A stretch of 63,046 nt of DNA, counting the filler, from Collodictyon triciliatum (lineage: Eukaryota): assembly GCA_043381765.1 (NCBI GenBank). It is 12 parts of 12 records of this genome, joined end to end, with 100 filler letters (N's around TTAATTAATTAA, not from the genome) between each part and the next. Parts side by side here need not be neighbours in the genome. Positions count along the whole stretch, not along the records: positions 21,066 to 26,228 come from JBHJMP010005415.1; 11 more parts are not named here. One strand, given 5' to 3'. Under the pieces are notes generated by a model. It ran no database searches. It was not told the origin of the DNA and saw only the letters and a list, made by a program, of their open reading frames with translations. Both the position numbers and the translations under genes were made by a program. Shown in pieces: positions 22,650-24,809 of the stretch; the first letter of the stretch is position 1; every line of letters starts with the position of its first letter.

Positions 22650-22880
22650 GGTCTACAATCACAACGAAACCGGGCACTTTCGGTTTCTTGGATTCGTGGT
22701 AAACAGCCCATTATTGGAAAATATAGTATCTATAGGATATAATTGTAAGGTCATCTGGACCCATAATTTAATTCTAGAAGGCAGCATACTATCTTTCGAT
22801 TGGTAAACCAGGTCTGCTAGTATCCAAGGCCTCGCCACTTTTTTTTACAAAGGATGTGTAGTGGTGAAAGCTGCCAGGAA
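22650..22880 (-). ncRNA. Candidate Fanzor omegaRNA scaffold and element right end
   Basis: Lies at the 3' end of the Fanzor ORF. Stem 22832-22839/22860-22867, imperfect GAAA-tetraloop hairpin 22787-22805, and perfect 7-bp hairpin 22666-22687. Boundaries are inferred. Confidence 0.45.
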
Positions 22881-24550
22881 AGAGCCAACAACCTGTTTTT
22901 TAGAGGAAGGTGTAAGCATACCTTGAAGGGTTAAAAGAACCTTCTTGAGTATATTTTTAGAGCAGTTAAAGTCCCTAGTCAAGAATACACATTGTTTGCT
23001 CTCTTGGCGATTGCATTATTTACATATGAGACATCCATATACATTTTTTCGTATTTCCTTTCAGTTTCACATATTACAGTTCTTTTTCGCAGCTACAGCA
23101 CATCTTGGAGGTTCTAAATTCATCTACACTAACTGATTCAAAAGGTTTGGATAGTATTTTTCGTAATCCTCTTCCGATGGTTGGCATAAAATGGTTCATC
23201 GGACATTTTCTGCTCCAGCCTCCATACGCCAGTACAACATCCTTGCCAAAAGTCTTTTCGATTCGGTCCATAAACATTTGCTCACTTTTTGTATTAACAT
23301 ACTGCCTTCATCTCATCCTTTGAAAGGTTACTCGTTCATAAAATCTGGATAATTCTATCTGGCATCCTGATTTCATAGATACATATTTTCGAAATTTATC
23401 ATAATCGACCGAGTGTGAATTATGTTTACTCAGTTATATCTCTAAATCGATGAAAGATACTCTTAATGTCTCAAACCGCTGATTCTCTTCAAAAGTTATG
23501 ACACCAAAAGAAATAGTACTTTGTAAAAATCTGTTGTCGTGCATATCCCTGGAGCATTGTACTTTTCTTTTTCGCGCAAGAATATTTTGTGATTTTCAAG
23601 AGATTTGCTATCATGTCTTGTTTGGTGTGCCGTGTAACGTAATTTCTTACCTGTCCCACCCGCCATATAAACCAAATCAAACTTACCTGCGTCCACTTCA
23701 ACTATTTTTTTTTGTCGCTAATAAAGATAACTACTCTTCGGATAGTTCATCTATGTAGATATTATTGGGTCTTTTGATTTATTTGAATTTTGAATTTGAA
23801 GTACCTTTCTTTTCAAACAATAATGATGACACCGCCAAGCCGTCTGTTTGTATTATGTATTAAATATTATAGTCTCTTTGATGTAAGACCCTCTTCTTCA
23901 TTTCAAAGAAATCATCCCTTAGGGTCTCTTTGCATCCTGATATATTCTTCAGTAATAATTTTTTTCCAGTTGACACTAATAGATCTATCAAACATGCAGT
24001 ATCTAGAGTAATATGACATGATATATTGTAAGTTCTTGTAGAGATTGGTTGAAGCAGTTTTGCTCCAATGTCCTCAAAAATGCGATTCATGTAAATCAGA
24101 CATGGAGTGTACTTATTCGGATTGACTTTGACGTCATATTTGATACCATTTGTAATATCGCTGTTTATGATATGATGCAGATGCGTTATAGTCCATCCCT
24201 TGATATTGTTCCGGTATTTCGAGATTCTTGAAGATGGCTTTTTTTTTCTTCCGTGATATTCTCTTTTTAATAGCTTCCGTAATATTCTCATCTTTAGGAA
24301 CTGTTTACTTTATAAAGCGCAGTAACCTCTTTACAAAATGCTCCTTTATGGTATTATGATAAGCTATTAACACTTGCTTCGCCAAGTACGGTAATACATG
24401 AGACAGTTCAACCAACAGAAAGCGTTCTTCTCGGGACAAAAGGAATCGAAAATCATAGATATAAAAGGTCACCATGTCATCTCTCGTTTCTGGTTGTTTT
24501 AATCTTGCGGGTCTATCTTGTGAAACTATTCCGACTGTCTTTAAAGCGTA

Positions 24551-24595
<45 letters not shown>

Positions 24596-24809
24596 ATTTC
24601 ATTGATTGTTGGGAGTTGTTGTTTCAATACGTAACATCTTGCAAACAGATAAGTATCGGTAACCAAATTATCACACAATAAAACCGTATCGTTGATTTTG
24701 TAATAATCATCGTATTCTTTACAATCGACTTTAGAGATGTTTTCACATTTGGATAGTCTGGTTTTACACATTTTATATTCTCAGACTTAAGACATTTTCT
24801 TTTCTTCAT
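22845..24809 (-). pseudogene. Degraded Fanzor1 (eukaryotic TnpB-family RNA-guided endonuclease)
   Basis: Ordered fragments: MKKRK..VKTSLKSIVK, YLAKQV..HNTIKEHFVKRLLRF, YDVKVNP..IYMN, HITLDT, IQTDG, RuvC-I EVDAGK..LRYT, VVLAYGGWS, RuvC-II VDEFRTSKMCCSC, CLICK*C, RuvC-III TRDFN..NI. There are 8 internal stops and several frameshifts. Confidence 0.88.

Follow-up and report, generated by a model that had tools for sequence, protein, structure and literature searches.

Within the 63,046-nucleotide stretch of Collodictyon triciliatum DNA analysed here (assembly GCA_043381765.1; hereafter, the window), the minus strand at 22884-24809 was found to carry a pseudogene of Fanzor1, a TnpB-derived family of omegaRNA-guided DNA endonucleases borne by mobile elements of eukaryotes and giant viruses. 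The locus is very probably a decayed, non-coding Fanzor1 relic within a many-copy repeat family of the source organism or of near relatives. An earlier note, made from the sequence alone, had proposed that short open reading frame fragments at this position join in order into a protein of about 600 amino acids. Colinearity with residues 1-610 of P0004, a 634-amino-acid full-length relative from metagenome contigs, was indeed observed (250 of 599 aligned residues identical, 41.7%), but the joining requires six frame changes and passes eight in-frame stops (six TAA, one TAG, and one TGA). The minus-strand reading starts at an ATG at 24809-24807 (MKKRK) and can be traced across the frame changes as far as the TAA of 22845-22847. 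The span that had been put forward, 22845-24809, is correct as to this stop, whereas the alignment to P0004 reaches no further than 22884 and does not include the tail of the last open frame (22845-22883, minus strand; about 13 codons up to the TAA).

On sequence comparison, the assignment of the relic to Fanzor1 can be regarded as secure. A 173-amino-acid single-frame read-through of the relic (P0001; 23595-23077, with X at two stops) was compared with PDB chains and matched the Fanzor1 proteins of Parasitella parasitica (PpFz1; E 2.9e-9) and Guillardia theta (GtFz1; E 0.0037), the Spizellomyces punctatus protein (SpuFz1) not being reached by direct phmmer of P0001 against these chains. The full-length relative P0004 matched SpuFz1 (E 9.2e-37, residues 14-607), PpFz1 (7.2e-34), and GtFz1 (7e-16), with no others at E≤0.01. 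A profile (A1) built from 22 full-length relatives matched the Fanzor1 structures at E values of 5.4e-87, 1.7e-84, and 1.7e-63, PpFz1 ranking first and GtFz1 third, and the next matches, to LaTranC (E 0.003) and Cas12g (E 0.015), involved the zinc-ribbon part only. No TnpB or Fanzor2 structure was matched by A1 at E≤10, it being unverified which such entries the searched PDB set contains. Searching the window with P0004 by tblastn gave six colinear segments of 37-52% identity (summed E 2e-90), and the frameshift-aware alignment of P0004 to the relic scored 562, compared with 31-40 for five shuffles of the DNA. The Fanzor1 membership proposed in the earlier note is borne out both by this alignment and by the matches of P0004 and A1 to all three Fanzor1 structures.

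Among 1.84 billion protein representatives searched with HMMER, P0001 matched 1357 at E≤1e-3, 381 at E≤1e-10, and 4 at E≤1e-30, the best match being 50% identical. Word-index homologue searches had returned nothing (none of 144 candidates scored for P0001, and none of 7 for a 149-amino-acid fragment); the relatives were then found by HMMER. One 378-amino-acid Fanzor1 fragment (P0003) is labelled '6-pyruvoyl-tetrahydropterin synthase' in its source, which is an evident mis-annotation.

The catalytic residues were mapped in two steps, from the relic to P0004 and from P0004 to SpuFz1 (MBP-fusion chain, offset 394). By this two-step alignment, and with all positions on the minus strand, the RuvC-I Asp of EVDAG (23691-23693) corresponds to P0004 D372 and SpuFz1 D383, the alternative RuvC-II Glu of VDEFRTS (23119-23121) to P0004 E530 and SpuFz1 E541, and the RuvC-III Asp of TRDFN (22971-22973) to P0004 D581 and SpuFz1 D606. 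The three acidic residues that had been ascribed to a RuvC site therefore do align to one, and these motifs were found at the places where the earlier note had put them, as were, in the same reading, the TDG and NTIKEHF..RF blocks, the CxxC..CxxC pairs, and the MKKRK start that it names. In the family alignment, the Gly of AYGGWS (23221-23223, minus strand) corresponds to P0004 G496 and is invariant in 22 of 22 sequences; in the light of TnpB motifs and the literature, it may occupy the canonical RuvC-II Glu position. The Glu at E530, also invariant in the family, sits 34 residues downstream of G496, and both are kept in the relic. The published accounts, cited here and below from excerpts, assign metal binding in SpuFz1 to E541, D383, N385, and D606 (PMC10432273), describe for Fanzors a Gly or Pro at the RuvC-II Glu position of most TnpBs with use of a conserved Glu further downstream (PMC10530073), and include a remark on 'G500/E536' in Fanzor1 (PMC3627910).

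A C4 zinc ribbon (TNB/NUC part) occupies 23013-23100 on the minus strand, with its Cys codons at 23098-23100, 23089-23091, 23022-23024, and 23013-23015. All four Cys fall on conserved columns; two stops (23074-23076 and 23016-23018) and a frameshift near 23043-23048 disrupt the span. The motif of Bao and Jurka, given in the excerpted source as D-X(125,275)-[TS][TS]-X-X-[C4 zinc finger]-X(5,50)-RD (PMC3627910), is complete in the relic as D372...T533-S534-K-L-C537..C540...C564..C567, 12 residues, and R580-D581 (P0004 numbering). Upstream of this core, a long N-terminal half, the REC/WED equivalent, is present, 24809-23712 aligning to P0004 residues 1-365, and P0004 itself aligns to SpuFz1 over residues 14-607. 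The IQTDG and NTIKEHF..RF blocks lie on conserved family columns. The basic start MKKRK (24795-24809, minus strand) resembles a nuclear localization signal (NLS) and is a putative one by sequence; similar basic starts are seen in relatives (MKRKK in P0004, MVKKKK in P0015, and MSKKKK in P0019), and N-terminal NLSs have been reported in Fanzors (PMC10530073, in excerpt). No second Fanzor1 copy was found within the window.

The reading frame is extensively broken. Six frameshifts were placed on the minus strand, the first (24714-24722), third (24195-24203), and sixth (23043-23048) approximately. At the second, the frame changes across a T43 homopolymer (24552-24594) that has expanded where the protein has a Phe codon; the fourth (23705-23720) lies at or beside an A9 run at 23705-23713; and at the fifth (23517-23532) the single-frame relative P0002 matches two frames of the window. 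The in-frame stops, likewise on the minus strand, are TAA at 24305-24307, 23860-23862, 23779-23781, 23434-23436 (where the family fragment P0105 has Glu), 23074-23076, and 23016-23018 (in the second half of the zinc ribbon), TAG at 23731-23733 (opposite P0004 Q359), and TGA at 23308-23310 (where P0004 and P0035 have Trp). Of the invariant family residues, 12 of 18 are kept and six replaced, and near-invariant residues are kept at 30 of 39 positions; such losses of residues fit drift without selection.

Contig pieces of four sequencing runs (X1, X2, X3, and X5) were placed on 22843-25000 at 85% likeness. No run contains the whole stretch (shares of sampled words ≤0.11), and the pieces placed numbered 125 for X1, 10 for X2, 1 for X3, and 327 for X5, most of them 85-95% alike. 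Among the matching runs no confirmed RNA run was listed, X5 and X6 bearing a conjectural RNA label. Three contigs match the relic almost perfectly: X1 record 1 covers 22984-23134 with no differences, X2 record 13 (151 nt) covers 23708-23858 with no differences, and X3 record 17 (252 nt) differs from the relic at one position, without gaps, over 23472-23723. These contigs between them span four of the eight stops (23779-23781 and 23731-23733 in X2 record 13, 23074-23076 and 23016-23018 in X1 record 1) and three of the six frameshifts (the fourth, gap-free, and the fifth in X3 record 17, and the sixth in X1 record 1). As contigs that are identical or differ by one base reproduce these four stops and three frameshifts, the breaks in question are not assembly errors.

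It could nevertheless be proposed that the gene is intact, its breaks being errors of assembly or sequencing, or being bypassed in expression through an unusual code, introns, or programmed frameshifting. Homopolymers (T43 and A9), where long-read assemblies err, do coincide with two of the six frame changes, and the unit that bears the relic is a short unplaced contig. Against this, the short-read contigs repeat the breaks just listed, including the whole A9 run, and six invariant residues are replaced, while all three stop codons occur in frame, so that no single reassignment rescues it, and the alignment continues directly across the breaks, without space for introns; neither a variant code nor splicing can therefore restore the frame. 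An intact gene is thus regarded as extremely unlikely. Judged by its sequence, the relic is a dead copy, as the earlier note had held, with no nuclease function to be expected at its present locus.

At three of the stops, all or nearly all run contigs carry a sense codon. Every covering contig reads CAA at 24305-24307 (24307 A>G; depth 30.9/30.9 in X1, 7.9/7.9 in X2, and 205.4/205.4 in X5) and TGG at 23308-23310 (23308 T>C), and at 23074-23076 most contigs read GAA (23076 A>C; 35.8/39.3 of the depth in X1), the identical X1 record 1 keeping the TAA. The database fragments P0035 and P0105, 60-69% identical, likewise have Trp and Glu at two of the stops of the relic. In X5, a run labelled with one organism, 21 pieces are at least 99% alike. 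The many pieces that are 85-99% alike suggest a multi-copy family of diverged copies, and contig joints in X5 (11 rows, one contig each, at 85% likeness and weak) might represent deletion derivatives. The proposal that the relic points to a wider Fanzor family is thus supported in so far as related copies occur in other runs; no intact member, however, was found among the run pieces or the closest database fragments, and two of the three closest fragments are themselves damaged, P0035 entering a wrong frame after HFM and P0028 being without the RD motif. A metagenome-contig search for related loci returned 11 loci at 26-56% identity and no near copy with flanks, and viral-contig searches with P0001 and with P0153 gave no matches.

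The true context of the relic is limited to its own unit. Eleven identical spacers (N44-TTAATTAATTAA-N44, with stops in all six frames) lie in the window at 5171-5270, 10440-10539, 15703-15802, 20966-21065, 26229-26328, 31492-31591, 36754-36853, 42014-42113, 47273-47372, 52532-52631, and 57790-57889, and the complete units between them measure, in descending order, 5169, 5163 (four units), 5162, 5160, 5159 (two units), and 5158 nt. Since the spacers split the window into separate contigs, gene-neighbourhood arguments across them are void. FG-GAP, PSMD13, MORN, DUF726, and Rab/Ras genes and a tRNA-Pro had been considered as neighbours of the relic and were dropped, as they sit on other units. 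The relic-bearing unit (21066-26228, 5163 nt; JBHJMP010005415.1) is flanked by spacers on both sides and holds 1.4 kb upstream and 1.8 kb downstream of the relic.

Besides the relic, one gene part was recognised on this unit, and it does not belong to the Fanzor1 element. At 21406-21631 (minus strand), an EF-Tu-type translation GTPase is represented by a single exon (PF00009, E 4.1e-8, 33.5 bits against a cut-off of 26.5), with GT directly after ..DQIDK. Its N-terminal lead-in is non-conserved and the open frame has no ATG ahead of the domain, so that an upstream exon may sit nearer to, or beyond, the Fanzor1 relic. The exon looks like part of a nuclear gene for an organellar EF-Tu, and its ending at a GT shows that the unit is eukaryotic nuclear DNA. 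Among 17 flanking open reading frames scanned on the unit, there was no viral-gene match above its cut-off and no transposase family.

Two observations were made on other units. The plus strand at 5949-7748 holds an open frame of 599 codons in which five FG-GAP repeats are encoded (PF14312, E 6e-38); it lies in a GC-rich island (GC 0.555 at 6001-8000 versus about 0.35 elsewhere) and differs in composition from most other units. Very GC-rich low-complexity stretches at 52632-54140 and 8131-8980, with extended repeats of the (GA)n/(TC)n and (GAC/GTC) types, surround internal N gaps at 53532-54130 and 8270-8667, which are probably scaffold gaps within repeat arrays.

A different objection concerns the provenance of the unit, which might come from a contaminant or symbiont, unlike the remainder of the assembly, and would then say nothing on a Fanzor family in this lineage. 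The units are unplaced and vary strongly in GC (0.555 at 6001-8000 versus about 0.35 at the relic), and matching pieces also occur in freshwater metagenome runs. The GC of the relic-bearing unit (0.35-0.36) and its microsatellite-rich style, however, match most other units, a spliced exon of eukaryotic nuclear type is present on it, and the nearly identical X5 pieces come from a run labelled with one organism. A foreign contig is accordingly considered distinctly unlikely.

The nearest full-length relatives are carried by a mobile element. Giant-virus contigs of IMG/VR encode full-length proteins 88% and 80% identical to P0004. Of the four loci, three have the same sequence, and one giant-virus locus adjoins a 949-amino-acid fused mRNA capping enzyme. 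Comparison of two of the loci (L012, 1631-4952; L014, 1630-4952) delimits a 3.3-kb Tc1/mariner-like element with 74% DNA identity and a sharp drop at both ends; the flanks are unrelated, and the ends are 28-33-nt inverted repeats with a TA before each. The element carries a divergent DDE_3 transposase of 343-346 amino acids with a helix-turn-helix (HTH), a 69-amino-acid open reading frame, and the 634-amino-acid Fanzor1. As the Fanzor1 stop lies about 45 nt from the right end of the viral element, a guide RNA scaffold must heavily overlap the coding region. Fanzor1 within Mariner elements of large DNA viruses, both virus-borne and virus-integrated, has already been described (PMC3627910, in excerpt).

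These relatives raise the question of whether the relic is the remnant of an integrated giant-virus fragment, its Fanzor1 having been delivered by a virus and not being a copy of a cellular transposon family. Both the giant-virus homologues of P0004, one of them beside a capping enzyme, and the described virus-borne and virus-integrated elements would be in keeping with such an origin. The relic itself, on the other hand, is only 42% identical to P0004 and no closer viral relative was reached through P0001 or P0153; the flanking open reading frames include no viral gene, the only match to pass its cut-off being the host-type EF-Tu exon; and the many diverged copies in the single labelled run X5 fit amplification within a cellular genome. 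Delivery by a virus is therefore judged very unlikely, and the reading of a decayed copy within a cellular repeat family is retained.

Several results nevertheless weigh against that reading, or against parts of it. With regard to family, a Pfam search of 10 single fragments gave one sub-threshold match, to PF07282 (Cas12f1-like TNB; E 0.079), although this family is barely reached by full-length relatives as well (P0013 scores 26.3 bits, equal to the cut-off, and two of five relatives have no match). With regard to decay, the runs that reproduce the breaks may include the assembly's own sample, and their independence is not established. With regard to copy number, the multi-copy family is read from short contigs that are partly metagenomic, in which related organisms may mix, and contig counts are not copy counts. 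With regard to transposition, inverted repeats shared by 24800-26200 and 22100-22900 do not exceed 12 nt, and a repeat search gave microsatellites only, with no element ends and no target duplication. The DDE_3 transposase of the relatives had no match in the window by tblastn (best E 3.5) which, with the flanking open reading frames, agrees with the earlier statement that no transposase is recognisable, and the end sequences of the viral relatives' elements, including the right end, had no similarity in the window. The fold of 22640-22900 (minus strand) gave z = -1.59, with 12 of 200 shuffles folding as well, and no omegaRNA match was found in Rfam at E≤1, a single decayed copy being a poor test in both cases. 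With one decayed copy and flanks of 1.4 and 1.8 kb, the absence of transposon and omegaRNA traits is weak evidence. The status of the relic as an element depends on the gene and on a drop in likeness at 22762-22842 (minus strand), the bin on the 3' side where likeness to other family copies ends (X5 depth 28.6 here and 0 in the next two bins). This bin is probably the neighbourhood of an old element end; upstream, likeness to other copies runs at least to 25000, the limit of the compared stretch.

Among known systems, SpuFz1 (PDB 8GKH, 9CEU-9CEZ) shares with the relic, via P0004, the same end-to-end architecture: the Mg-binding D/E/D positions, the alternative Glu in D-E-[FY]-[KR]-T-S, then the zinc ribbon, and then RD. 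Unlike SpuFz1, the relic is broken, and neither 30-nt inverted repeats nor a 3' omegaRNA region is recognisable at it. In S. punctatus, 42 Fanzor1 loci have been described, 19 of them full-length, with partial copies beside intact ones (PMC10432273, in excerpt). PpFz1 (PDB 9CF0-9CF3) and GtFz1 (PDB 9CER-9CET), to which P0001 matches directly, are distant in sequence and, in contrast to the relic, are intact, biochemically studied enzymes. The giant-virus Fanzor1 Tc1/mariner elements, such as PGv-1 of Phaeocystis globosa virus (Bao and Jurka 2013, PMC3627910, in excerpt), have the organisation shared by the viral loci L012-L015, whereas at the relic a Fanzor1 remnant is all that is seen, with 42% identity to the viral type, the PGv-1 sequence itself lying outside this comparison. 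With prokaryotic TnpB (IS200/IS605, for example ISDra2) and Fanzor2, the relic shares the RuvC and zinc-ribbon core and the Bao-Jurka motif (PMC3627910, in excerpt), but its family differs from them in having the long Fanzor1 N-terminal half.

By analogy with the biochemistry of the family, the ancestor of the relic would have bound to an omegaRNA produced from the 3' end of its own gene and would have cut double-stranded DNA beside a target-adjacent motif (TAM). It may have ridden in a DNA transposon, which in the nearest full-length relatives is the 3.3-kb Tc1/mariner-like element. A further possibility, tentative and on balance doubtful, is that the pieces 85-99% alike include intact, active members of a Fanzor1 lineage whose nearest full-length kin ride such elements in giant viruses. 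If that were true, the organism would record virus-host traffic of an RNA-guided nuclease and would hold a usable, compact Fanzor1 (about 630 amino acids) together with its omegaRNA. The relic is minor in itself, and decayed Fanzor1 copies are to be expected in any genome that has housed the family; what it offers is a lead to a repeat family, the subfamily of which otherwise appears here only in metagenomic and giant-virus contigs.

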